Shown: in pieces, positions 3,315-14,912 of the stretch
How positions within the stretch are numbered: the stretch's first letter is position 1
Layout: the number at the start of each line of letters is the position of its first letter
Origin: Phycisphaera mikurensis NBRC 102666
GTDB taxonomy: Bacteria; Planctomycetota; Phycisphaerae; Phycisphaerales; Phycisphaeraceae
Length of the DNA stretch: 32,000 bases
Direction: 5' to 3'
Assembly (NCBI RefSeq): GCF_000284115.1
Contig: NC_017080.1
Coordinates: 1,260,001-1,292,000, forward strand
Notes under the pieces: generated by a model
The model's input: the letters and a program-made list of their open reading frames with translations, nothing else
Told to the model about the DNA's origin: nothing
Database searches by the model: none
Position numbers and translations under genes: made by a program

Positions 3315-4049
3315 TCAGAAGCCGAACAAGTCGGCGGCGGTGGCGGCGTCGAGCGCATCGGCCGGGGTGTCCGCCTCGCCCGGGAGCGCTTCCGCGAGGT
3401 CCGGCATGAGGGCCGCCGGATCGAGCCCGTGCGCGCGGAGCAGCAGCAGCGGGTCGCGGTCGATCAGCACGGCCAGCCCGAGCATCGTGCATAGGAGGTG
3501 CTTGCACGCGGAGTCGCCGTCGAGGCAGTCGCAGCTGGTGGCGACGCCGCGCCTCTGCGGCAGCAGCGGGCAAGCGGGTTCGGACAGGGCCGCCTCCACC
3601 GCGGCGGGCAGTTGGCCGGCGGCGAGAGCGGACGCGTCGGCGGGGGTCAGCTGCGCCCGCAGCGACGCCACGGCGTTTCTCCACCACCGCTTCGGCGGCG
3701 GCTTCAGCCGGAACGCCGTCTCGTACGTCTCCAAGCCGTAGACGCGCCCGTCGGCCCCGCCGCCCTCGCGGGCGGTGGTCGCCCGCGCGTCGCCGTCCTT
3801 CACCTGCAGGTCGACCAGGCAGTGGTGGCGGAGGTAGCCCTTTGCCTTGGTCGCCCGCGACGCGCTGCCGGCGTAGCGGAGCGACGCCTCGAAGAAGGCG
3901 GTGCCCAGGAGCGTGCGCGTCTGCTGGCGGCCCTCCGCCGCGACGGGCCGGATCGCGCCCCACCGCTTCGGCGGCTTGGCGATGAGCTCCAGCGCCTCCT
4001 CCTTCAGCTCGCCCAGCGGCTTGCTCGGGCCGGAGTCGTACCAGCTCAT
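3315..4049 (-). CDS. SWIM zinc-finger domain protein (partner of the SNF2 helicase)
   Basis: 244 aa. It carries a CxC-x7-CxH SWIM signature (SCDCLDGDSACKHLLC). Its ATG overlaps the SNF2 stop as ATGA (4046-4049). Confidence 0.8.
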   Translation of the reverse strand: MSWYDSGPSKPLGELKEEALELIAKPPKRWGAIRPVAAEGRQQTRTLLGTAFFEASLRYAGSASRATKAKGYLRHHCLVDLQVKDGDARATTAREGGGADGRVYGLETYETAFRLKPPPKRWWRNAVASLRAQLTPADASALAAGQLPAAVEAALSEPACPLLPQRRGVATSCDCLDGDSACKHLLCTMLGLAVLIDRDPLLLLRAHGLDPAALMPDLAEALPGEADTPADALDAATAADLFGF

Positions 4050-6412
4050 CCGAAGGCGTCCAGATCGAGGCGGACCAGGTTCAGCAGCGCGTCGTCATCG
4101 AGTTCGGTGAGCTTCAGCTCGCCGGTGTCTCCTTCGCCCGGGAGCACCGCCCCGGCGAGCGCCCGCTTGTCTTCGATCATGGCGTCGATCTTCTCCTCGA
4201 TGGTGCCGCGGGTGATCATCGTGTGCACGAAGACGTTGCGCTTCTGGCCGATGCGGAAGGCCCGGTCGGTCGCCTGGTCCTCGACGGCGGGGTTCCACCA
4301 GCGGTCGAAGTGAACGACCTGCGCGGCGGCCGTGAGGTTCAAGCCCACGCCGGCGGCCTTGAGCGAGAGCACGAGGCTCGGTGGGCCGTCCTCCGCCTGG
4401 AAGCGGGCGACGATCTTCTTCCGCTTGGCCACCGGGACGCCGCCGTGGATCGCGTCGCCGCGGCGGCCGAAGACATCCGCGAGCAGGTTCCGCAGCGGGT
4501 CGATCACCTCGCGGAACTGCGTAAACACCAGCACCCGCTCGTCGGCCTCGGCGAGCCGCTCGGCGAGCTCGACCAGGCGCCTCATCTTCCCGGACTGCCG
4601 CGGCTCGTAGCCGCCCTCGCCGGTGAGCTGGTCGGGGTGGTTGCAGCACTGCTTCAGCCGCGTGAGCGTCTGCACGACCAGGCCCTTCCGGCGGATGTCG
4701 TCGGCCCCGTCGAGCTGCTCGGCGAGCCGGTCGACAGTGGCCTCGTAGAGCTTCACCTGCTTCGGCGTCAGCTCGCACCAGGTTCTGGTGACGGTCTTGT
4801 CGGGTAGATCCGAGATCACCGACTTGTCGGTCTTGCTCCGCCGGAGCAGGTAAGGCTGCACCAACCCGCGGATCCGGCCGTACCTCGCGGAGCCCCGGTC
4901 GGGTTCCTCCGACCCATCGGCTTCGGATCCGCGGACCGTCGCCTCTTTGAGGCCATCTCCGCCACGGTCCGCGGATTCGCGGTCGAGCCGCGCGAGCAGC
5001 TTCTTGAAGCCCACCCGCGAGCCGAGCAGCCCGGGGTTCAGGAAGTCGAACAGCGACCACAGGTCCGACAGGCGGTTCTCCACCGGCGTGCCGGTCATCG
5101 CGATCCGCGCCGGCGCCGGGATCTTCTTGACCGCGCGTGCCTGCTTCGTTGCGGGGTTCTTGATCGCCTGCGCCTCGTCGAGGATGACGCGGCTCCACGG
5201 GCACAGCGCGAGCCAGTCCAGCCGGCCCGCCATGGCGTAGGTGGTGACGACGAGGTCGCGCCCGCGGAAGGCCTTCGCCGGCGTTCTCCCGCGGGCCGCC
5301 GCCTCGGCCCGCTCCAGGCGGTCGCCCCCGGAGGTGCCCGGGTGGAGCAGCTCGACCGCGAGGTCGGGCGTGAACCTTTTGGCTTCCTCCTCCCAGTTGT
5401 GCAGGAGGCTCGCCGGCACGACCAGCAGGCTCGGCGGCCGCGGGCCTTCTTCCTTGTCGGCGCGCAACGCCGCGAGCACCTGCAGCGTCTTGCCCAGGCC
5501 CATGTCGTCGGCGAGGCAGGCGCCCAGCCCGAGCCCGCCGAGGAAGCGGAGCCAGGCGACGCCCTCTTGCTGATACGGCCGCAGCGTCGCGCGCAGGCCC
5601 GGGATGCTCGCGGGTTGCAGCCGCGCCGGGTCGCGCAGCCGGGCCGCGGTCTCGCGGAAGGCGCCGCCGGCGGTGGCGTGCAGCCAGGGCTCGCCGTCCC
5701 CGTCCAACGCCTCTTCTGTAGCGCCCGCCGAGCCGCCGAGCATCCGCATCGCCGCGAGCAGCGTCACGCCGTCGAGATTCTGCCGGCTCAGCGCGTGCAG
5801 CCGGGCGATCGCCTGCCGGAGCTGCTCCGCGTCCACCGCCGCCCAGCGACCCTTGAGCAGCACGAGCGTCTCGCCGGTCGCGTCGTCGTCCATCAGCCCG
5901 TCGGCTTCCTCGGCCGAGAGCGTCGCATCACCCAGGGCGAGGGCGGCGTGGAAGTCCAGCAGCGCCTCCGCCCCGACACGCGAAGCCGTGCCGCCGATCT
6001 TCACGTCCACCTTCGGCTTCGCCCGCTTCTTCCACCAGTCCGGCAGCCTCGCCTCCAGGCCGGCGTCCCGCATCTCCGGGACGCCCCGCAGGAACGCCGT
6101 CGCCATCGCGACGTCGAACCGCAGCGGGTGGTAGACGTGCCTGCTCGCGACGAGCTCCCGCAGCCAGGGCAGCCGCTCGCCCGCCGCGTGCAGGGGCGCC
6201 AGCAGCCCGGCCAGGCCCGCCGCGTCGCCCGCCTCCGCCCGCTCCCGCGCGGCCGCGAGCAGGCGCTGGCGCCCGGTCCGGCCGCTTCCTTCCCTCGTCT
6301 CCACGCTCGCGAGGAACGCGAACGGCCGCTCCGCGTCGTCGGGATTCTCGACCAGGCGGAGGACGACCCGCACCGCTTGAGCTTCCCCGCGTTGTCGACG
6401 CTGACCCGTCAC
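4046..6412 (-). CDS. SNF2/RapA-family DEAD-like helicase (HelZ-like)
   Basis: Motif I LADDMGLGKTLQ, motif II ILDEAQAIKN, motif III MTGTPVENRL, and C-terminal lobe motifs VLVFTQF, SLKAAGVGLNLT and QATDRAFRIGQKR. I trimmed track ORF 4046..6796 to the in-frame GTG at 6412, which overlaps the stop of the upstream membrane-protein gene as GTGA. Sequence upstream of 6412 is better explained by the other frame. Confidence 0.9.
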   Translation of the reverse strand: MTGQRRQRGEAQAVRVVLRLVENPDDAERPFAFLASVETREGSGRTGRQRLLAAARERAEAGDAAGLAGLLAPLHAAGERLPWLRELVASRHVYHPLRFDVAMATAFLRGVPEMRDAGLEARLPDWWKKRAKPKVDVKIGGTASRVGAEALLDFHAALALGDATLSAEEADGLMDDDATGETLVLLKGRWAAVDAEQLRQAIARLHALSRQNLDGVTLLAAMRMLGGSAGATEEALDGDGEPWLHATAGGAFRETAARLRDPARLQPASIPGLRATLRPYQQEGVAWLRFLGGLGLGACLADDMGLGKTLQVLAALRADKEEGPRPPSLLVVPASLLHNWEEEAKRFTPDLAVELLHPGTSGGDRLERAEAAARGRTPAKAFRGRDLVVTTYAMAGRLDWLALCPWSRVILDEAQAIKNPATKQARAVKKIPAPARIAMTGTPVENRLSDLWSLFDFLNPGLLGSRVGFKKLLARLDRESADRGGDGLKEATVRGSEADGSEEPDRGSARYGRIRGLVQPYLLRRSKTDKSVISDLPDKTVTRTWCELTPKQVKLYEATVDRLAEQLDGADDIRRKGLVVQTLTRLKQCCNHPDQLTGEGGYEPRQSGKMRRLVELAERLAEADERVLVFTQFREVIDPLRNLLADVFGRRGDAIHGGVPVAKRKKIVARFQAEDGPPSLVLSLKAAGVGLNLTAAAQVVHFDRWWNPAVEDQATDRAFRIGQKRNVFVHTMITRGTIEEKIDAMIEDKRALAGAVLPGEGDTGELKLTELDDDALLNLVRLDLDAFG
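4929..4974. repeat. Palindromic element copy B, inside the SNF2 CDS
   Basis: Perfect arms at 4929-4938 and 4965-4974. The extended left arm CGGATCCGCGGACCGTC (4924-4940) is the reverse complement of the copy A and copy C right arms. Confidence 0.85.
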
Positions 6413-6741
6413 GTCCGATCGAGCAGCAGGGGCACGTAGCCGATGACCGGGAGGAACGACGAGGCCAGCAGCCCGCCCACCAGCCAGCTGCCCGGCACCG
6501 CGGGGATCAGCAGCCAGCCGACGACGCCGCTGGCGACCAGGGCGACGCCCGCCGGCAGGAGCCAACGCCCGCAGGCCGCGTTGAGGCGGTACCAGGCCGC
6601 GTCGTCGCGGAGCGTCGTGCGTGTCCGGAGCCCGAAAAGCAGGTTCGGCTTCACCTTCCCGCGGATCAGCGGCACGGCGGACCCGACGCACATCAGGCCG
6701 AGAAGCAGGTTGAGGAGGCAGAGGAGGAAGGCCGGGTTCAT
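6409..6741 (-). CDS. SdpI/YhfL-like small integral membrane protein
   Basis: 110 aa with 3-4 hydrophobic helices. The motif KVKPNLLFGLRTRTTLRDDAAWYRLN resembles the SdpI-family N-x-GxRT-x-TL...W signature. GC3 is high. It overlaps both neighbours: ATGA with Uma2 and GTGA with SNF2. Confidence 0.6.
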   Translation of the reverse strand: MNPAFLLCLLNLLLGLMCVGSAVPLIRGKVKPNLLFGLRTRTTLRDDAAWYRLNAACGRWLLPAGVALVASGVVGWLLIPAVPGSWLVGGLLASSFLPVIGYVPLLLDRT

Positions 6742-7259
6742 CGCCGCTTCGGCCAGTCTCGGGGCAGCTGGATCGTGCAGCCGTCGTGCAGGTCAATCGT
6801 GTGCACCTCCGGCTGCTTCTGTGTCCGCGTGTCGTGCAGCGTCAGCGTCGGGGGATCCGCCAGCAAGTAGTGCTTCACGCCACGTTCGGCGTAGATCTCG
6901 CGCTTCTCGTTGCGGTCGCGGAGGTGCGTCGCCGGAGAGAGCACCTCGACGATCAGCGCTGGAGCTTCCCGGATGAAGGTGTCGTCCTCGTGCCCGCAGA
7001 GCACGCTGATGTCCGGACGCACGATCAGGTCCTCGGCCAGGATCCAGTCGACCTCGTTGACGAGTTCGCAGTCGCCGCAGGCATCCCGGGCGTCGAGCTG
7101 TGCGTGGAGCGCCGCGAGGATGCGAGCGGAGAAACGGCCGTGCGGCCGCCCCGGTGACGGCGACATCGCGATCGCGTGCCCGAACCAGAGCTCCCACTCC
7201 CCCTCCCACCGCTTGTAGTCGTCGACGGTGTAGTGGGGGATGTGGTGAAGCGCGGGCAC
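6738..7259 (-). CDS. Uma2-family (DUF820) PD-(D/E)XK putative endonuclease
   Basis: 173 aa. Family pattern YKRWEGEWELWFGHAIAMSPSPGRPHG...RPDISVLCG...PALIVEVLSPATHLRDRNEKREIYAERGVKHYLLADP, which includes the PD...EVxS...K core. A GTG start at 7259 lies 4 nt after the helicase stop. Confidence 0.8.
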   Translation of the reverse strand: MPALHHIPHYTVDDYKRWEGEWELWFGHAIAMSPSPGRPHGRFSARILAALHAQLDARDACGDCELVNEVDWILAEDLIVRPDISVLCGHEDDTFIREAPALIVEVLSPATHLRDRNEKREIYAERGVKHYLLADPPTLTLHDTRTQKQPEVHTIDLHDGCTIQLPRDWPKRR

Positions 7260-7263
7260 GCGA

Positions 7264-9849
7264 TCACTTTACCCGCGGCCGGTGCCGATCCGCCGCCGCC
7301 TCCAGCTCCGCCGCCATCCGCGTGATCCGCTCCTCCCAGGTTTGGCTGCTCTGGTGCTGCTCGCGCAGCCGCTCGGCGAAGAGCGGGAAGCCCAGCGGGG
7401 TGAGCCGGTCGGGGCAGACGCAGACGATCTCGTCGGCGGCGAGGCTTTCCAAAGACGCGCGCAGGCGGGCGACCTCCAGCTGCCGCTCGAGCACCTCGCG
7501 CTTCGCCTGGGTGAGCAGCAGGTTGTCGGGGTCGAAGTCGGTGAAGACGTCGAAGAACAGTTCGCTGCTCGCCTGCAGGTGCTTGGTCGCCCGGTTCTCG
7601 CCGGGGTAGCCGGTCTGGATCAGGCCGGCGATCCGCGCGATGTCGCGGAACTGGCGGCGGGCCAGCTGGCCGGTGTCGACGCAGGCGAGGAGGTCCTCGA
7701 GCAGGTTCTCCGGCGAGAGCACCTCCGCCCAGAAGCCGACCTCGTGCGGCAGCGGGTCGTCGGTGAGCACCTCCACGCCGTAGTCGTTTACCGTCACCAC
7801 CACCGTCAGCGGCATCGCCCGCGTGAGCCGCAGCGCGAGCAGCGCCCCGAGCCCCTCATGCACGAGCCGGCCCAGCAGCGGGAAGAGGAAGTGGTGGTGG
7901 CCGTCGCGCGTGCGGACCTTCTCGATGAGCAGCTCGCCGGACCGCGGGATGCGCGACCAGTCCTCCTGCAGGCGGAGCAGCGGCTCGATCGCCCGCATCT
8001 CGGCGTTGTCGTAGACGCCGGCCACCGCGGCGTCGAGCCGGCGCCGCACCGCCGCGGCGAGCTGCGTGGACAGCGGGCTGCGGCCGCCGGCCCAGCGCGG
8101 CACGTTCCCGCGCGAGCCGCTCGCTCGTTTCACCTTCGCGACCATCTGCCGCACGCTCACCAGCTGCACGAGGTGGCCGGCGAAGACGAAGCGGTCGCCG
8201 GGCTTGAGGAAGCCGACGAAGTTCTCCTCGACCGTGCCCAGCCGCTTGGATCCCATCAGCACCGAGATCATCGCGTTGCTGGTGATCGTGCCGATGCCCA
8301 TGCGGTGGTCGCGGGCGACCTTCTGGCCCCCGACGCCGTAGAAGCCGGGCCGGTCCGGGTCCTCCACCACCCGCTCGAAACGCGGGTACGCCCGCAGGCT
8401 CTCGCCGCCGCGGACGACGAAGTCCAGGCACCAGCCGAACTCCTCGTCGGTGAGGTGGCGGTAGGACCAGGCGGTCCGCAGCTCCTCTTTCATCGCTTCG
8501 GCGTCGAAGCCGCCGCCGGCGGCCACCGTCACCAGGTGCTGCACCGCGACGTCCAGCGGGCGATCCAGCGGCACGCGGCTCTCGATCTCGCGGGCGTTTC
8601 CCGCGTCCCGCGCGGCCGCGAAGTCCAGCACCTCCAGCGCGTTGGTCGGCACGCCGATGATGCGCGACTTGACGCCCGGCTGGTGCCCGCTGCGGCCGGC
8701 CCGCTGCAGCATCCGCGCCACGCCCTTGGGGCTCGCGACCTGGATCACCTGCTCCACCGGCGAGAAATCGACGCCGAGGTCCAGCGAGCTGGTGCAGACG
8801 CAGACCTTCAGCTCGCCCGAGCGGAGCATCTCCTCCACCGCGTTCCGCGTCTCGCGGTCGATGGAGCCGTGGTGCAGCGCAACCTTCCCGAGCCACTGCG
8901 GCCTCGCCTCGCAGATCCGCGCGTACCAGATCTCGCTCTGGCTGCGGGTGTTGGTGAACAGCAGCGTCGAGGCCGCGGGCTCCAGCGCGTCCAGCACCGC
9001 GTCGAGCAGCACGATGCCCAGGTGGCCCGACCAGGGGAAGCGGTTCGCGACGCCGTCGCCGACTTCCCCTTTGCTCCCGCCGGGCAGAAGCGTCGTCAGC
9101 TCGAAGCCCGCGTCCTCGGGCCCCGCCAAGCGGCAGCCCTCGCGGGCTCGGCGGGTCGGCGGGTCGACGCCGAGCAGGCAGTCCTTCGCCTCTCCGAGAT
9201 TGCCCAGCGTTGCCGACAGCCCCCAGGTCTGCACGGCGGGGTTGAAGGTGCGGAGCCGCGCGAGGCCCAGCTCGGTCTGCGTGCCCCGCTTGGTCGAGAG
9301 CAGCTCGTGCCACTCGTCGACGACGATCGTCTCGAGCCCGCGGAAGGCTTCCTCCGCGTTGGCGTACGACAGCAGCACCGACAGCGACTCGGGCGTGGTG
9401 ACCAGGCACGTGGGCAGCTTCTTCCGCTGCTTCTGCCGCAGGGCCTGCGGCGTGTCGCTCGTTCGTTCCTGCACCGTCCAGGGCAGGCCGAGCGCCTCGA
9501 CCGGCCGCCTGAGGTTCTCGCGCGTGTCCACCGCGAGCGCACGCAGCGGCGTGATCCACAGCACGCGCGGGCCGACGGGGTCCATCGACGCCCAGGCGTC
9601 GCGGTCGGGGTGCTGCTGGATCCAGCGCAGCAGCGGACCGCCCCACACCGACAACGTCTTGCCCGTGCCCGTGGGCGCGTGGATCAGCCCCGACGCGCCG
9701 GCAAGCTGCCGCTCCCAAGCCTCCTTCTGGAAGGCCGCCGGCTCGCCCAGCGCCCCGCGGAACCAATCGAGGAAGGGCGATCCGGGCGGCGGCACGGGGA
9801 AGGTTAGGAGCAGGCCGGGTGAACCGGGACCACGCACCCGCAGACGCAC
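7264..9849 (-). CDS. Ligase-associated DEXH-box helicase (Lhr-core-like)
   Basis: Motif I IHAPTGTGKT, motif II VVDEWHEL, GLSATLGN, motif VI MLQRAGRSGH, plus a long Lhr-type C-terminal region. It sits directly downstream of the ATP-dependent ligase. The start is uncertain: GTG at 9849, or a later in-frame GTG near 9795 just before PFLDWF. Confidence 0.9.
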   Translation of the reverse strand: MRLRVRGPGSPGLLLTFPVPPPGSPFLDWFRGALGEPAAFQKEAWERQLAGASGLIHAPTGTGKTLSVWGGPLLRWIQQHPDRDAWASMDPVGPRVLWITPLRALAVDTRENLRRPVEALGLPWTVQERTSDTPQALRQKQRKKLPTCLVTTPESLSVLLSYANAEEAFRGLETIVVDEWHELLSTKRGTQTELGLARLRTFNPAVQTWGLSATLGNLGEAKDCLLGVDPPTRRAREGCRLAGPEDAGFELTTLLPGGSKGEVGDGVANRFPWSGHLGIVLLDAVLDALEPAASTLLFTNTRSQSEIWYARICEARPQWLGKVALHHGSIDRETRNAVEEMLRSGELKVCVCTSSLDLGVDFSPVEQVIQVASPKGVARMLQRAGRSGHQPGVKSRIIGVPTNALEVLDFAAARDAGNAREIESRVPLDRPLDVAVQHLVTVAAGGGFDAEAMKEELRTAWSYRHLTDEEFGWCLDFVVRGGESLRAYPRFERVVEDPDRPGFYGVGGQKVARDHRMGIGTITSNAMISVLMGSKRLGTVEENFVGFLKPGDRFVFAGHLVQLVSVRQMVAKVKRASGSRGNVPRWAGGRSPLSTQLAAAVRRRLDAAVAGVYDNAEMRAIEPLLRLQEDWSRIPRSGELLIEKVRTRDGHHHFLFPLLGRLVHEGLGALLALRLTRAMPLTVVVTVNDYGVEVLTDDPLPHEVGFWAEVLSPENLLEDLLACVDTGQLARRQFRDIARIAGLIQTGYPGENRATKHLQASSELFFDVFTDFDPDNLLLTQAKREVLERQLEVARLRASLESLAADEIVCVCPDRLTPLGFPLFAERLREQHQSSQTWEERITRMAAELEAAADRHRPRVK

Positions 9850-9889
9850 GCTTGGAGCTGGCCCGCCGCGCCGCCGGCCCGGCGCGCTT

Positions 9890-11635
9890 CTAGATCAAGC
9901 CGCGGAGAAAACCGACGGTGTCGGCTTCGTCGGCGCGCTTGTCGTCGCGGATGCGGGCCATCCGCGGGAAGCGGAGCGCGAGGCCGCTTCGGTGCCGCTT
10001 GCTCTCCTGCACGCCGTCGAAGGCGATTTCGAAGACGCGGCTGGGCTCGACCTCGCAGAAGGCGCCGCGGCCGCCGCGCCGGTGGCCCTTGATGAAGGCA
10101 TCGACCCGCGCGAACTCCGCGTCGGTGAGCCCCGAGTAGGCCTTCGTGACCGGAACCAGCTCGCCCCGGCCGGGTTGCTCGCCCGTCCAGAGCGCGAAGG
10201 TGTAGTCGGTGTAGAGCGTCGAGCGCCGGCCCGTGCCACGCTGGGCGTAGATCATGACGGCGTCGATCGCGTAAGGGTCGACCTTCCACTTCCACCACAG
10301 CCCGCGCTCGTCGCCGCTCTCCCGGGTCATGGCACGGCCGATCCCGTAAGGGGCGTCGCGACGCTTGAGCATGAAGCCCTCGACGTTGCGGGCCCGGCTC
10401 GACGCGCGGAGCGCACCCAGCGAATCCCAGGATCCGCCCTCGACGGCCGGGGAGAGGAGCAGCTTGCCGCCGGAAGCGTGGAACGCGTCGGCGGCGAGGG
10501 CCTCCAGCGCGGCGCGCCGCTGGTGGGTCGGCTCCGTGCGCAGGTCCGCGCCGCCGAGCTCGAGCACGTCGTAGGCCATGAAGACGACGGGGCGGTCCTC
10601 GAAGAGCGCGGGGTGGCGGGCTCTGCGGTTCAGCCGGCGCTGGAGGACCGCGAAGGGCTCCGGCAACCCGCGGACCGTCGGCGTTTGGAGCTCGAAAGCG
10701 TGACGGTCCGCGGATCCGTCCGCGTTCCGCCACGCGAGGATCTCGCCGTCGAGCACGGTGCCTTCGGGGAGCGTGGACGCCGCCGCGGCGACCTCGGGGA
10801 AGGTGCCGGTGATGAGCTCCTCGCCGCGGGACCACAGCCGGGCGCTGCCGCCGCGGCGGAGGAGCTGGCAGCGGATCCCGTCCCACTTCCACTCGACGCT
10901 CCAGTCGCTGCGGTCGCCGAGCTTCTCCCGGGGCGTCGCCTGGAGCTGCTGAGCGAGGCAGAAGGGGTAGGGGCGCGCCGCGTCGTCGGCCGCGGCGTCG
11001 GCGTCGGCGCCGCCGCCGCTGCCGCCGCTGCCGGCCGCTTGGCCGCCCGGCCGATCCGGTGCGGTCACCCGCTCCCACGCCGAGCGTGTGGGCGAGAAGC
11101 CGCCGGTCATGCGGTGCTGCATCACCGCCGCCGGCACGCCGGTGGCTTCGGCGAGGGCGTTGATGACGACCTTCTTCGCGGCCCCGAAGCGGAAGTTCCC
11201 GGAGATCAGCTTGTGGAACACGAGCCGCTGGGTCGCGTCGAGCCGGTTCCACGTCGCGAGGATCGCGGTCCGCTGCTGCCCCTCGCTCATGCGTTCGAGC
11301 GGGAGCACGCGCGTCTCGATGATCGAGGTCAGCGACTCGTCCTCGCCGGCCGCGGTCGGCGGCGGCAGCAGCAGCGACAGCGTCTCGGACAGGTCGCCGA
11401 CCACCGAGTGCGACTCGGCGATCAACCACGCCGGGAGCCCCGTGGCCTCGCCGCAGAAGGCCCGCAGCCGGTTGTACGGGACGCGCCGGATCAGCGACGT
11501 CCCGGTCAGCACCGCGAGCGCCCAGGCCGCGTCGTCGGCGTCCGCTTCGCGGAAGTAGGCCGCGATCGCCGCCGTCTTCTCGCTCGTCCGCGTGGTGCGG
11601 TCGACGGCGGTGAAGAGGGCGGTGAACGACTTCAA
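9890..11635 (-). CDS. ATP-dependent DNA ligase (ligase-associated damage-response type)
   Basis: Adenylation motif I VEWKWDGIR, plus LDGEILAW, VFMAYDVLE, EGFMLKRRDAPY and WWKWKVDP. N-terminal DNA-binding-domain-like start (M)KSFTALFTAVDRTTRTSEKTAAIAAYF, with TTG as the start codon at 11635. Confidence 0.9.
   Translation of the reverse strand: MKSFTALFTAVDRTTRTSEKTAAIAAYFREADADDAAWALAVLTGTSLIRRVPYNRLRAFCGEATGLPAWLIAESHSVVGDLSETLSLLLPPPTAAGEDESLTSIIETRVLPLERMSEGQQRTAILATWNRLDATQRLVFHKLISGNFRFGAAKKVVINALAEATGVPAAVMQHRMTGGFSPTRSAWERVTAPDRPGGQAAGSGGSGGGADADAAADDAARPYPFCLAQQLQATPREKLGDRSDWSVEWKWDGIRCQLLRRGGSARLWSRGEELITGTFPEVAAAASTLPEGTVLDGEILAWRNADGSADRHAFELQTPTVRGLPEPFAVLQRRLNRRARHPALFEDRPVVFMAYDVLELGGADLRTEPTHQRRAALEALAADAFHASGGKLLLSPAVEGGSWDSLGALRASSRARNVEGFMLKRRDAPYGIGRAMTRESGDERGLWWKWKVDPYAIDAVMIYAQRGTGRRSTLYTDYTFALWTGEQPGRGELVPVTKAYSGLTDAEFARVDAFIKGHRRGGRGAFCEVEPSRVFEIAFDGVQESKRHRSGLALRFPRMARIRDDKRADEADTVGFLRGLI
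10668..10713. repeat. Palindromic element copy C, inside the ligase CDS
   Basis: Perfect 12-nt arms, CCGCGGACCGTC (10668-10679) and GACGGTCCGCGG (10702-10713). The 20-mer CCCGCGGACCGTCGGCGTTT (10667-10686) is identical to 27813-27832 in an intergenic region. Confidence 0.9.
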
Positions 11636-11713
11636 AGCGGAAGGACGCTACGCCCCGTGGCGACTCCGAATGGCCTCGCGGCCGGATGCACCGCCGCCCC
11701 CGGGCGGGCCGCG

Positions 11714-12007
11714 TCAGCGCATCATCCACCTGGCGTCGCTCACGAGGCCCACGCCGCCGTACTTCTTCAGCACCGGCGCGAGAAGCTCGCCGAGCTTCTC
11801 CGCCTTCGCCTCGTCGCAGGCGCAGAGGATCAGGCAGTTCTCGAACGCGCCGGTGATCCCGTCGGGGTGGCGGTCGCCGCGGTCGCCCCAGCCCGAAGCG
11901 TTGCGGAGGACCGTGTAGCCGTTGACGCCGGCGGCGAGCAGGACCCCCACGACGCGGTCGACGTGGTGGCTGTCGACGACGAGCTCGATGCGTTTGACGT
12001 TCTTCAT
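11714..12007 (-). CDS. P-II-like small regulatory protein (SbtB-like)
   Basis: 97 aa reading MKNVKRIELVVDSHHVDRVVGVLLAAGVNGYTVLRNASGWG..., a PII-like beta-alpha-beta layout. It lies 10 nt downstream of an SbtA-family permease, which is the usual pairing. Confidence 0.65.
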   Translation of the reverse strand: MKNVKRIELVVDSHHVDRVVGVLLAAGVNGYTVLRNASGWGDRGDRHPDGITGAFENCLILCACDEAKAEKLGELLAPVLKKYGGVGLVSDARWMMR

Positions 12008-12017
12008 GGCGGGCCGC

Positions 12018-13073
12018 TCAGGTCCAGATCGCGTCGATCGCCGCCATGTACAGCGGGATCCCGACGGTGATGTTGAAGGGGAAGGTGACCGCCAGCGACA
12101 TCGTCACGTAGATGCCCGGGTTGGCCTCGGGCACGGCCAGCCGCATCGCGGCGGGCACCGCAATGTAGCTCGCGCTACCCGCCAGCGTCGCCAGCAGGAG
12201 GGCATCGCCCTGGCCGGCGCCGAGCAGCCAAGCCGCGGCGATCCCCAGCGAGGCGTGGGCCGGGGCGCTCAGGACGGCGAAGGCGATCAGCGAGCCCCCG
12301 GCCCTCCTCAGGTCGCCCAACCGGCGGGCGGCGACGAGGCCCATGTCCAGCAGGAACAGGCACAGCACGCCCTTGAAGGGCGCGTACGCGAAGGGCTTGA
12401 TCGACTCCCATCCCCGGTCGCCGATGGCCAGGCCGATGAGCAGCGAGCCGACGAGCACGACGACGGCGCCGTTGAGGAACGCCTCGCGGAAGAGCTCGCC
12501 CCAGTCGACGTCCCGGAACCCGCCGGCGTCGCCGGCTCCGTGCCCGGCGAGTCCGGGCCGCTGCTCGTCTCCCGCCGCCGGGGTCCCCTCGGAGGAGGGG
12601 GCGTACCAGCGCGCGAGCAGCACGCCGACCACGATGGCGGGGCTCTCCATCAGCGCCATCGCGGCGACCATGTAGCCCCCGGGCGTGTAAGCCGGGTCGG
12701 AGGAGGCGAGCGTGGTCAGGAAGTTGTTGGCGGTGATGAAGGTGACCGCGGAGATCGATCCGTAGGTGGCCGCCATGGCCGCGGCGTTGGCGGCGTCGAG
12801 CTTCAGGCGGAGCACGAAGAAGGACCACACCGGGACGATCGCCGCGAGCACGACGGCGGCGAGCAGGAGGCCGATGACCCGCGCCCCGAGGTCGCTGTGC
12901 ATCAGCTCGACGCCGCCGTGAAGGCCGATGGCCATCAACAGGTAGATCGACAGCAGCTTGGGGATCGGCTGCGGGAGGGAGAGGTCGCTCCTGCAGACCG
13001 CGGCCAGCACGCCGAGCGCGAAGAAGAGGATCGCGGGCGTGCGGAGGTTGTCGACGAGCAGGCTGAGGTCCAT
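12018..13073 (-). CDS. sbtA: SbtA-family (DUF897) sodium-dependent bicarbonate-transporter-like permease
   Basis: Polytopic membrane protein with two hydrophobic halves separated by a Gly/Asp/Ala-rich cytoplasmic loop. Start MDLSLLVDNLRTPAILFFALG and end SASYIAVPAAMRLAVPEANPGIYVTMSLAVTFPFN match my memory of SbtA. I trimmed the track ORF (to 13232) to the ATG at 13073. Confidence 0.75.
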   Translation of the reverse strand: MDLSLLVDNLRTPAILFFALGVLAAVCRSDLSLPQPIPKLLSIYLLMAIGLHGGVELMHSDLGARVIGLLLAAVVLAAIVPVWSFFVLRLKLDAANAAAMAATYGSISAVTFITANNFLTTLASSDPAYTPGGYMVAAMALMESPAIVVGVLLARWYAPSSEGTPAAGDEQRPGLAGHGAGDAGGFRDVDWGELFREAFLNGAVVVLVGSLLIGLAIGDRGWESIKPFAYAPFKGVLCLFLLDMGLVAARRLGDLRRAGGSLIAFAVLSAPAHASLGIAAAWLLGAGQGDALLLATLAGSASYIAVPAAMRLAVPEANPGIYVTMSLAVTFPFNITVGIPLYMAAIDAIWT

Positions 13074-13335
13074 GCGGGGCGGACGGTAACCGGCGGCGGA
13101 AGCTCGCGATGCCGCGATCGACCACACGCCCCGCGCCGCAATCGACCCGCCGAAGCGGAGCGGGGGGGCCGTGGCTCGCAGGCGGCCCGGAGGATTTTCC
13201 GGCCATCGCACGCCTCCGGATCCCGGTGCCACGCACGCGCAGGCGCGATCTTCGGCACGTCTTCCGGAGCGGCCGATGCCCGGGTGCCACGCGGCTCGCG
13301 GGTGAGGTGTCCGCGGGACGCGCGGCCGGCTCCGC

Positions 13336-14454
13336 TCAGTTGAAGAGCCCGCCCTGCGGATCTTCCCCGGGCTCTTCCGCGGCTTGGTCGGGGTGCGTCT
13401 TCATCGCGATGTCGTTCCCGGTGACGGTCCCGTCCTCGTCGCCGGTCCAGCGGGTGGGCACCACGTCGGCGTCGAGGCTGCGCACCTCGCGGAGGTAGCG
13501 GACAACCGCCTCGCTGCTGCCGTGCGTGACGCCGATGGAGCCGGCGCCGGTCGCTTCGATCGCCCGCATCAGCCCCGGCCAGTCCGCGTGATCGGAGACG
13601 ACGAAGCCGCGGTCGACGCCGCGGCGGCGGCGGTTGCCGCGCACCATCATCCAGCCGCTGGCGAAGCTGGTGGAGAAGGGCGCCCAACGCTTCAGCCAGG
13701 CGGTGCCTAGCACCGACGGCGGCGCCACGAGCAGGGCTTTGCCTCTGTGCTGTTTCGCCAGATCCGGCGTCGCCCGCCGCACGGGCGGGAGCCTGACGCC
13801 GGCGGCCCGGTAGACCTCCACGAAGCTCTCGACGCTGCCGTGGACGAAGATCGTCGCTTCCTCATCGGCCGCCTCGGCCTCCAACAGCATCGAGAGCACG
13901 CGCTGCGCCTTGCCCAGCGCGTACGCGAAGACGACGGAGGTGCGGGAGAGCGCGCGGTTCTCCGACCACCACGCCGCGAGGTCGGCGGCGACGCCGTCGC
14001 TCTCGGGCCAGCGGTAGATGGGCAGGCCGAAGGTCGACTCGGTGACGAAGCGGTGGCAGGGCACCGGCTCGAAGGCGTCGCAGGTGGGGTCGGCGGCGAC
14101 CTTGTAGTCCCCGGAGATCACCTCGACGCGGCCGCGGTGCTCCACGCGCACCTGGCCGGAGCCCAGCAGGTGCCCGGCGGGGTGCAGCGAGACGGTGACG
14201 CCGTTGAGGCTCGTCGTCCGGCCCCAGGGCAGCCCCTCGATGGGGGCGTCCGGCTGCACGCGCCGGGCGAGCACGGGCTCGCCGGCGGCGCTGGTGAGGT
14301 AGCGGGAGCAGCCGGCGGTGGCGTGGTCGCTGTGGGCGTGGGTGACGACCGCGCGGTCGACCGGCTTCCACGGGTCGATGTGGAAGCCGCCGGCGTGGCA
14401 GTACAGCCCCGACGGTCCGGCGACGACGAGCGGGATCTCGGGCGGACGCGGCAC
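13336..14454 (-). CDS. Ligase-associated metallo-beta-lactamase-fold exonuclease
   Basis: GLYCHAGGFHIDPW...AVVTHAHSDH (HxHxDH motif), then LHPAGHLLGS and VISGDYK. I trimmed the track ORF (to 14706) to the in-frame GTG at 14454, 8 nt after the upstream gene stop. The longer version would overlap the DUF1772-like gene. Confidence 0.8.
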   Translation of the reverse strand: MPRPPEIPLVVAGPSGLYCHAGGFHIDPWKPVDRAVVTHAHSDHATAGCSRYLTSAAGEPVLARRVQPDAPIEGLPWGRTTSLNGVTVSLHPAGHLLGSGQVRVEHRGRVEVISGDYKVAADPTCDAFEPVPCHRFVTESTFGLPIYRWPESDGVAADLAAWWSENRALSRTSVVFAYALGKAQRVLSMLLEAEAADEEATIFVHGSVESFVEVYRAAGVRLPPVRRATPDLAKQHRGKALLVAPPSVLGTAWLKRWAPFSTSFASGWMMVRGNRRRRGVDRGFVVSDHADWPGLMRAIEATGAGSIGVTHGSSEAVVRYLREVRSLDADVVPTRWTGDEDGTVTGNDIAMKTHPDQAAEEPGEDPQGGLFN

Positions 14455-14462
14455 GGGGGGTT

Positions 14463-14912
14463 CTACGCGGTGAGGGCGGTCACGATCGCGGCGGCCGCGA
14501 GCACGCCATGCGCGGTCCAGGCGGCCGTGCGGATCCAGTTCGTCGTCACCAGCGAGCGGGCGGCACCGGCGTCGAAGCCCCGGGCGAGCACGCGGTGCCT
14601 GGGGATCTGCAGGAGGGCGGTGCTGGCCCAGTTGATCGCGACGGTGGCGAGGCCGAGCCACGGAATCCAGGGCGGCACGCCCGGCGGCGGGCTCAGGCAC
14701 AGCCACACCGTGGCCCCCAGCTCGACCGCCATCAGCGGGCCGACGACCGGCCCGGTCCGGGCGATGTGCTGCGCCTGGTAGCCGAGGTACGCGTCGGCCG
14801 GCACCCGCGCGTGCGCCGGGTAGTGCACGCGCTGCACGAACCAGATGAGGCCGACCATGCCCCAGACCGAGCCGGCGTACGCGGCGAGGACCAGCGCGTC
14901 CGCGGCGCTCAC
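14463..14912 (-). CDS. DUF1772-like four-helix membrane protein
   Basis: C-terminal 149 aa of track ORF 14463..15377. It has hydrophobic helices plus LLQIPRHRVL...TTNWIRTAAWTAHG, resembling the DUF1772 NxPxN...W-x-R pattern. The GTG at 14912 overlaps the SRPBCC gene stop as GTGA. Confidence 0.55.
   Translation of the reverse strand: MSAADALVLAAYAGSVWGMVGLIWFVQRVHYPAHARVPADAYLGYQAQHIARTGPVVGPLMAVELGATVWLCLSPPPGVPPWIPWLGLATVAINWASTALLQIPRHRVLARGFDAGAARSLVTTNWIRTAAWTAHGVLAAAAIVTALTA

Follow-up and report, generated by a model that had tools for sequence, protein, structure and literature searches.

A widespread SNF2–SWIM gene pair and its lineage-specific neighbours in Phycisphaera mikurensis

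In the 32,000-nucleotide (nt) stretch of the Phycisphaera mikurensis NBRC 102666 genome analysed here (NC_017080.1, positions 1,260,001 to 1,292,000; hereafter the window), four minus-strand genes lie head to tail between positions 7259 and 3315. They encode a Uma2-family nuclease, an SdpI-like membrane protein, a SWI2/SNF2-type ATPase and a SWIM zinc-finger protein. The initial annotation had read them as one undescribed nuclease/membrane/translocase/zinc-finger system. We consider it likely, instead, that three units with separate evolutionary histories make up the stretch and have come to be packed one behind the other in P. mikurensis and its nearest relatives: a SNF2–SWIM two-gene operon that would form the core and that occurs in many bacterial phyla and on plasmids, an SdpI-like gene that would stand in place of a lost 5′ part of the SNF2 gene, and a solo Uma2 gene. 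The candidate four-gene system resolves into an annotated pair plus two lineage-specific accessory genes, and it is not one to take forward as a new defence system; what the stretch carries is a lineage-specific form of a gene pair that databases already annotate without assigning it a function.

The SNF2–SWIM pair and its truncated form

The recurrence of SNF2 and SWIM genes as a pair, which the initial annotation had pointed out, is well borne out by a survey of 160 distant loci (80 from species-representative genomes and 80 from metagenomes, among the matches listed). These loci come from many phyla, and their SNF2 proteins are 40-53% identical to that of the window over almost the full length. 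In 148 of the 155 evaluable loci the gene that immediately follows SNF2 on the same strand encodes a SWIM partner, and in 109 of these 148 pairs the SNF2/SWIM junction either overlaps or leaves a gap of ≤30 nt. The SWIM-partner family is also present on 117 plasmid records, where RefSeq already names the two products of the pair 'SWIM zinc finger family protein' and 'DEAD/DEAH box helicase', and a pair on a Bradyrhizobium plasmid has the identical 4-nt SNF2/SWIM overlap. Around the pair the genes are heterogeneous: a Pfam census of 136 upstream neighbours yielded 118 families, none of them seen more than 4 times and most of them metabolic or transport families. Because no other neighbour is conserved, SNF2–SWIM is a self-contained two-gene module, one that is conserved, tightly coupled, widespread and already annotated. 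No third conserved partner emerged from all-against-all clustering of the flanking open reading frames (ORFs) of 80 loci, which gave the SWIM family only.

Only one phage record matches the SWIM-partner family. The match, in Wolbachia phage WO (MN180251.1, 60146-60709), falls within a gene annotated as a SNF2/RAD54 family helicase, which suggests a fused SWIM–SNF2 form in this prophage. In addition, the matches listed in a scan of JGI metagenomes for closer relatives were all homologues of ≤50% identity, and the gap between 53% and 72% identity was not bridged.

In the window SNF2 protein, a DUF3670 domain (PF12419, residues 93-224, E = 1.3e-26) precedes an ATPase core matched by the Pfam models SNF2-rel_dom (E = 1.4e-56) and Helicase_C (E = 3.7e-18), and the translation carries the ATPase motifs GLGKT, DEAQ and QATDRAFRIGQ. 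The best solved relative is SsoRad54 (1Z63, E = 4.7e-119; the next PDB match stands at 9.5e-70), with which the protein shares its SNF2 ATPase core, the class named in Iyer et al. 2017 (PMC5512222). Comparison with the nearest relatives, which we refer to as the clade and whose SNF2 proteins are 72-88% identical to that of the window, gives a ratio of nonsynonymous to synonymous substitution rates (dN/dS) of 0.25-0.31 for SNF2, 0.41-0.58 for SWIM and 0.24 for the gene of the Lhr-type helicase (Lhr) upstream of the four genes. Both members of the pair are under purifying selection.

The clade departs from the rest of the family at the N-terminus of SNF2. Distant homologues reach ~145 residues further, in conserved sequence, and a hidden Markov model (HMM) of this N-terminal domain matches 156 of the 160 distant loci; the four loci without a match are each truncated at the edge of a contig, so that all 156 evaluable loci have the domain. 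The same model finds no match in the window (E ≤ 10) or in the clade loci L082-L084 (E ≤ 1e-3). The SNF2 of the Phycisphaera clade has lost this ~145-residue, otherwise universal domain, and the SdpI-like gene stands where its coding sequence would be. The NCBIfam model NF058637 (SCO1167/SCO6262 family helicase) scores 519.5 bits against the window protein, short of its cut-off of 1200, and is matched over model positions 311-931 only. Neither tblastn nor the HMM places the N-terminal domain elsewhere in the window. Furthermore, although the SNF2 frame stays open up to 6796, the codon-position GC content of this extension is that of non-coding sequence (0.52 at the third position, compared with 0.89 in the SdpI frame); together with the Pfam match and the conserved homologues of the SdpI-like protein, this rules out that the SdpI ORF is a shadow of a longer SNF2 gene.

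The exact start of the shortened SNF2 gene is uncertain. GTG 6412 is in frame and GTG 6373 is an alternative, and with these two candidates the SdpI/SNF2 junction is either a 4-nt overlap or a 35-nt gap. The second GTG coincides with the onset of conservation, and the gene call in the same-species locus L001 starts at the equivalent position. The 36 nt that separate the GTGA overlap from it are poorly conserved in the closest relative, clade locus L084 (see the table), when compared with the ~91% identity on either side; they may form a new N-terminus under no constraint, or else a non-coding spacer.

The SWIM partner has changed as well. The window protein has no Pfam match at E ≤ 0.01, and its identity comes from its family. 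Its homologues are encoded by the genes that immediately follow SNF2 in the distant loci, 20 of 26 members of the SWIM-partner family match PF04434, the residues C173-x-C175-x6-C182-K183-H184 of the zinc-binding signature are invariant in 26 SWIM-partner sequences and kept in the window protein, and the NCBI name for an identical protein is again 'SWIM zinc finger family protein'. The C-terminal half is kept, while the N-terminal half is strongly diverged, ~25% identical to the rest of the family, with W48 replaced by L and W52 by F. AlphaFold2 gives a model of this partner with a mean predicted local distance difference test score (pLDDT) of 86.3 and a predicted template modelling score of 0.84, which Foldseek matches to no PDB structure at E ≤ 0.001; there is no PDB sequence match either. 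Given a SNF2 variant that lacks its N-terminal domain and a SWIM partner that has diverged along with it, the domain lost here is likely, judging from these sequences, to be the part of SNF2 that in other members of the family would touch the SWIM partner at its N-terminal half. The opposite end of the partner also varies: 6 of the 26 SWIM proteins carry a C-terminal Xre-type helix-turn-helix (HTH; HTH_3 or HTH_31) after a basic linker, which suggests a DNA-targeting role. In the SWIM partners of loci L004, L005, L006, L009, L014 and L021, the HTH follows a linker rich in K, R, A and P; the Phycisphaera version has no such tail.

It is fair to ask if a pair altered in this way is simply decaying, on its way to becoming a pseudogene amid a junkyard of accessory genes. 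The missing domain, otherwise universal, would fit such a history, as would a SWIM protein that has lost two near-invariant tryptophans, that escapes Pfam and whose gene has the dN/dS given above. However, the ATPase motifs are intact, SNF2 is constrained to the same degree as Lhr, the zinc ligands are invariant, the reading frames are intact in the short-read assemblies of clade loci L083, L170 and L173, and the AlphaFold2 model of SWIM is a confident one (mean pLDDT 86). We consider decay of the pair highly unlikely. Frame breaks do occur in Lhr, SNF2 and SWIM in two clade contigs (L082, 2226-4698 and 8104-8839; L174, 895-3110). We did not adopt a pseudogene reading of these, as the contigs come from one assembly (ERZ25039505) and their genes are 84-94% identical to those of the window, which makes assembly indels the likelier cause.

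Two lineage-specific genes upstream of the pair

The SdpI-like protein (PF13630, E = 2.6e-12, 47.1 bits against a gathering cut-off of 28.2) has about three hydrophobic segments and, in its Pfam domain and its small, stand-alone form of ~110 residues, is a regular member of the SdpI/YfhL family, to which the Bacillus immunity/signalling protein SdpI belongs. At E ≤ 1e-3 the family numbers 1219 cluster representatives; most stand alone and are 105-125 residues long, and the nearest outside the clade are ~40-48% identical. This wealth of relatives rules out that the gene arose de novo by overprinting of the lost SNF2 5′ region. The context is unlike that of the Bacillus Sdp genes, in that the neighbours here are Uma2, SNF2 and Lhr; no ArsR- or SdpR-type regulator gene was found among the window genes scanned, and no SdpC-like toxin gene was seen adjoining the SdpI-like gene.

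Within the clade, an SdpI-like gene lies upstream of SNF2 in every locus that reaches that far (L082, L083, L084, L170, L172, L173 and L174), and none was found by tblastn and a clade-specific HMM in the 160 distant loci. Its dN/dS is 0.44-1.09. It is a weakly constrained, fast-evolving and clade-specific gene at the SNF2 5′ position. Its acquisition and the truncation of SNF2 probably go back to one rearrangement, a single event that may have brought in the SdpI-like gene, with or without Uma2, and shortened SNF2.

These facts would also accommodate a clade-specific functional unit of SdpI, SNF2 and SWIM, in which the membrane protein replaces the lost SNF2 domain, for example by membrane tethering or regulation, and Uma2 is a passenger. 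The loss of the domain coincides exactly with the position of the SdpI-like gene, the gene is directly upstream of the truncated SNF2 in all the clade loci just listed, and SdpI and SNF2 either overlap or lie a short distance apart in the window, L084, L083, L170 and L173. Yet the SdpI proteins of the clade are 44-59% identical where the SNF2 proteins are 72-88% identical, and their dN/dS rises to 1.09, a sign of weak constraint. In L082, moreover, a hairpin followed by a U-tract separates SdpI from SNF2. The whole neighbourhood is syntenic in the clade, so the co-occurrence of SdpI with truncated SNF2 is no independent evidence, and a three-helix membrane protein has no evident route to replacing a soluble domain. 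On balance we regard such a unit as unlikely.

The L082 hairpin deserves a brief description. The SdpI–SNF2 junction is a GTGA overlap in the window, an overlap in L084, a 10-nt gap in L083 and a 98-nt spacer in L082 (5631-5729), and this spacer holds a hairpin of ~28 bp (-66.8 kcal/mol, z = -6.4) that is followed by UUUU and was flagged by a terminator scan. The window lacks this perfect-stem structure of ~100 nt, for which an intrinsic terminator and a small palindromic mobile element are both possible explanations.

The identity of the first of the four genes is equally clear. Its product matches the Pfam family Uma2 (PF05685) with E = 7e-25 and 87.9 bits against a gathering cut-off of 27, as well as the PADLOC candidate family PDC-S03 (E = 6e-19). 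Its RPD, EVLSP and RDRNEKR motifs align with those of PDB entry 9Y1L, and every clade homologue retains them, in line with its prediction as a nuclease. Makarova et al. 2009 (PMC2701414) call the family (COG4636) a 'likely solo toxin' that seldom has a linked antitoxin. The window gene resembles these solitary genes in its size, its PD and E-x-L-S-P motifs, its stand-alone relatives, its variable presence and its exchange by recombination; unlike them, it is wedged 4 nt after Lhr and overlaps the next gene, and there is no cassette of paralogues. Indeed, the 32-kb window holds no second Uma2 copy. Homologues at 46-53% identity are solitary and occur in planctomycete-like contexts, beside ClpB, PEP-CTERM-type genes or sigma factors.

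The clade provides two indications that Uma2 has a history of its own. In L170 the 355 nt between Lhr and SdpI contain no Uma2 gene, which implies that Uma2 is dispensable to the other genes; a remnant was ruled out, with no tblastn or HMM match. (The same gap holds a 70-residue ORF with a hydrophobic segment, L170 7093-7305, which has no Pfam match on record and is unrelated to Uma2.) In addition, the DNA identity between the window and L084 breaks abruptly within Uma2, whose body is far more divergent than its last 63 nt and the SdpI-like gene that follows (see the table). Synonymous divergence (dS) between the same two loci is 0.66 for Uma2, 0.15 for SdpI and 0.22 for SNF2. Protein identities do not agree with one another: for Uma2 they are 80% between L082 and L084, 62% between the window and L084 and ~60% between the window and every relative, whereas the SdpI proteins of the window and L084 are 89% identical and that of L082 is 44-50% identical to all others, unlike the N-terminal region of the L082 SNF2, which shares 85-87% identity with its counterparts in the window and L084. 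The histories of Uma2, SdpI and SNF2 are mutually incongruent. The identity breakpoint, the contrast in dS and the incongruent identities lead us to conclude that Uma2 has been exchanged by recombination, and the breakpoint illustrates cleanly how near-identical genomes can swap alleles of a solo nuclease gene. The dN/dS of Uma2 is 0.38-0.53. The gene would behave as a selfish or defence-candidate element, variably present and exchanged from strain to strain.

Beyond the clade, Uma2 genes were found in five of the 160 distant loci (L040, L058, L061, L145 and L164; Pfam E ≤ 1e-28) by tblastn, a clade HMM and a broadened HMM at E ≤ 1. Where tblastn detects them, their products are 27-31% identical to the window Uma2, and these genes are consequently no dedicated subfamily. 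One lies downstream of the pair on the same strand, two are convergent downstream and two divergent upstream, a variety of orientations that argues against an operon. The modest but significant enrichment of Uma2 beside the pair, quantified below, is a weak hint of a loose Uma2–SNF2–SWIM association in what is a small sample of five loci. One could go further and propose that Uma2 is a recurrent, facultative partner of SNF2–SWIM in a loose unit of nuclease, motor and zinc finger, recruited independently in at least six lineages (the Phycisphaera clade, Desulfosporosinus, Desantisbacteria, Methylomirabilia and two metagenomic lineages), of which the Phycisphaera form, with its remodelled SNF2 N-terminus and added membrane protein, would be the most compact. 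Such a unit would be comparable to the SNF2–nuclease fusion of Zorya ZorD. We think the proposal unlikely, but if true it would offer a first way into the function of two orphans, the Uma2 family and the SNF2–SWIM pair.

One system or three units

The proposal of a single anti-phage or DNA-surveillance system, with Uma2 as the effector, SNF2–SWIM as the motor or sensor and SdpI as the membrane anchor or sensor, can now be weighed against these observations. The gene order is kept in L082, L083, L084 and L174 and the window genes overlap at their starts and stops; Uma2 belongs to a PADLOC candidate family and undergoes allele replacement, as do many defence genes; it directly adjoins SNF2–SWIM in five distant loci; and a SNF2–nuclease fusion does exist in ZorD, which PADLOC describes as 'SWI2/SNF2 helicase, Mrr-like nuclease'. 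Against this, none of the 160 surveyed loci has SdpI and only 5 have Uma2, which takes three orientations and in four of the five stands on the strand opposite to the pair, convergent or divergent. L170 has SdpI, SNF2 and SWIM without Uma2, and in L082 the terminator-like hairpin intervenes between SdpI and SNF2. The clade's housekeeping genes are just as syntenic as the four genes, and elsewhere the pair's neighbours are mostly metabolic. The SWIM and SdpI proteins have no PADLOC match, and the defence-model matches of SNF2 are to a generic ATPase core and lie far below the NCBIfam cut-offs. Together with the incongruent histories, these results run counter to the proposal, and we judge a single four-gene system to be very improbable.

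Two specific expectations of the initial annotation bear on the same point. Outside one narrow clade the four genes are not syntenic, an outcome that the annotation itself had counted against its proposal. Within the clade, relatives keep not only the four genes but also Lhr (82-92% identical to that of the window), DUF2203, the HC2-like gene, NDK and AccD (92-95% identical); the entire neighbourhood is syntenic, and hence gene order there says little about function. The annotation had also taken the four genes to be translationally coupled. The overlaps are there in the window, but they are not conserved in the relatives, where L082 even has a terminator-like hairpin at one of the junctions and the Lhr–Uma2 gap, 4 nt in the window, measures 238 nt in L083. 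Overlaps of 4 nt between genes are commonplace and are no evidence of a functional unit. A terminator scan found no terminator-like site on the minus strand between 2900 and 10000, and Lhr and the four genes may well be co-transcribed in the P. mikurensis strain, which would reflect compaction and not a common mechanism; the Lhr-type helicase is a context gene that stands outside the module.

Several observations nonetheless weigh against a complete separation of the three units. The order Uma2-SdpI-SNF2-SWIM is kept in L082, L083, L084 and L174 as well as in the same-species locus L001, and the tight packing in the P. mikurensis strain makes co-transcription and some functional cross-talk possible. 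The presence of SdpI alongside the truncated SNF2 in every clade genome makes a clade-specific functional link possible too. The adjacency of Uma2 argues against its complete independence: all five distant Uma2 genes directly adjoin the pair, there is no Uma2 in ~1.1 Mb of more distal flank of the distant loci, and, with the adjacent zones making up 22% of the flanking sequence, this adjacency has p ~5e-4 when pooled and ~0.003 within the five loci. Finally, we found in the literature no functional study of a SWIM-partnered bacterial SNF2, and no such protein with a demonstrated function, and the biochemical role given to it here comes from homology only.

With these points in mind, the composite of three units can be placed among known systems. 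By the homology of its family, SNF2 would be an ATP-driven translocase on double-stranded DNA that remodels or displaces protein–DNA complexes without unwinding, and the SWIM partner would be a tightly co-expressed targeting or regulatory subunit. We think a housekeeping role of the pair, in genome maintenance or transcription, more likely than one in phage defence, because its neighbours are heterogeneous and mostly metabolic and because it is almost absent from phages. The window pair agrees with the SWIM-associated SNF2 family in its DUF3670 domain, in a SWIM gene directly downstream whose start lies over the SNF2 stop and in the invariant CxCx6CxH ligands; it differs in a SNF2 without the N-terminal domain, a SWIM protein with a diverged N-terminal half, and the SdpI and Uma2 genes upstream. 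In general class it is like the RNA-polymerase-associated RapA/HepA and Bacillus subtilis YwqA, that is, the bacterial SNF2 translocases on double-stranded DNA, although its score against the RapA model (NF003426) is 38.3 bits, far short of the cut-off of 576. YwqA presumably belongs to the DUF3670/SWIM-partner family. It is described as a little-characterised SNF2 translocase with RNA polymerase as an interaction partner (PMC7385302).

The likeness to the SNF2 proteins of Zorya (ZorD), Dpd (DpdE) and DISARM (DrmD) is of a similarly general kind. HMM matches to these are strong but partial, confined to the ATPase core, and their scores are below the cut-offs: 280.7 bits against 1500 for ZorD, 57.9-61.2 against 610-950 for DrmD and 33 against 500 for DpdE. 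Unlike ZorD, the window ATPase has no fused nuclease. No partner genes of ZorD, DpdE or DrmD were seen among the annotated neighbours, against which the partner-gene models were not scanned, and of the four proteins run against PADLOC, SdpI and SWIM gave no match.

In practice the result serves as a correction of the four-gene proposal; beyond that, the locus may be of use for the study of the pair, which is very widespread yet has no function in its annotation. The truncated SNF2, as a natural variant with a co-diverged SWIM partner, and the enrichment of Uma2 next to the pair are new points, and the variant and the adjacency could both help that study.

The locus and its surroundings

The layout of the four genes and of the genes upstream is given in the table. 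The four minus-strand genes, their three start/stop overlaps (ATGA at 6738-6741, GTGA at 6409-6412 and ATGA at 4046-4049) and the 4-nt gap that separates the GTG start of Uma2 at 7259 from the Lhr stop codon (7264-7266) can all be read directly in the window, as the initial annotation had described them. Its protein identities also stand, through Pfam for Uma2, SdpI-like and SNF2 and, in the lack of a Pfam match of its own, through family homology and the invariant zinc ligands for SWIM. The window is ~73% GC, and third-position GC is 0.87-0.92 in each of the four ORFs, as expected for real genes in such a genome; the Uma2, SdpI-like and SWIM proteins are exact matches to Phycisphaera mikurensis proteins.

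Table 1. Positions of the genes and sequence segments discussed, with DNA identity to clade locus L084 where compared
Feature	Position in window	Strand	Remarks	Identity to L084
Ligase-associated exonuclease, TIGR04122	13336-14706	minus	passes family cut-off	
SbtA bicarbonate transporter gene	12018-13232	minus		
P-II gene	11714-12007	minus		
ATP-dependent ligase, TIGR04120	9890-11635	minus	passes family cut-off	
Ligase-associated DNA-damage-response DEXH helicase (Lhr type), TIGR04121	7264-9849	minus	980 bits against cut-off 850	
Uma2-family (COG4636) PD-(D/E)XK nuclease gene	6738-7259	minus	173 residues; PF05685	
Uma2 body	7109-6801	minus		63.4%
Last 63 nt of Uma2	6800-6738	minus	conserved side of recombination breakpoint	93.7%
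SdpI/YfhL-family small membrane protein gene	6741-6409	minus	110 residues; PF13630	91.6%
36 nt from GTGA overlap to second in-frame GTG	6408-6373	minus	poorly conserved	55.6%
SsoRad54-like SWI2/SNF2 ATPase gene with DUF3670	4046-6412	minus	788 residues from GTG 6412, 775 from GTG 6373	
SNF2 from GTG 6373	6372-5841	minus		90.6%
SWIM zinc-finger partner gene	3315-4049	minus	244 residues; family homology	

Upstream, the ligase-associated DNA-damage-response cluster (minus strand, 7264-14706) is split, with the SbtA and P-II genes (11714-13232) between the exonuclease and the ligase/helicase genes. The PdeM phosphoesterase, usually the fourth member of the cluster, was not seen among the window genes scanned, and Uma2 occupies the site after the helicase where PdeM usually stands. 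In the 160 distant loci the four genes do not co-occur with the Lhr or ligase genes of the TIGR04120-04123 cluster: the Lhr query gave a single weak match (23% identity, E = 1e-6), ~7 kb from SNF2 on the opposite strand, and the ligase query likewise gave one weak match, several kb off and on the opposite strand.

The relatives differ from the window at the other side of Lhr as well. Directly upstream of Lhr, L083 (3160-3821), L170 (3904-4490) and L082 (1600-2210) have a small ORF and a Fic-domain gene, a toxin-antitoxin-like arrangement. The two occupy the site that the ATP-dependent ligase has in the window, and tblastn finds no ligase in these three loci; the region upstream of Lhr is thus also a variable spot.

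Downstream of the SWIM gene, the plus strand carries a convergent DUF2203 gene and the HC2-like gene, and the minus strand AccD. The HC2-like gene (plus strand, 1738-2346) encodes a lysine/alanine/proline-rich protein that matches the histone H1-like HC2 family below threshold (34.7 bits; cut-off 40) and that, over its first ~106 residues, is 88-93% identical to the L082 and L083 homologues.

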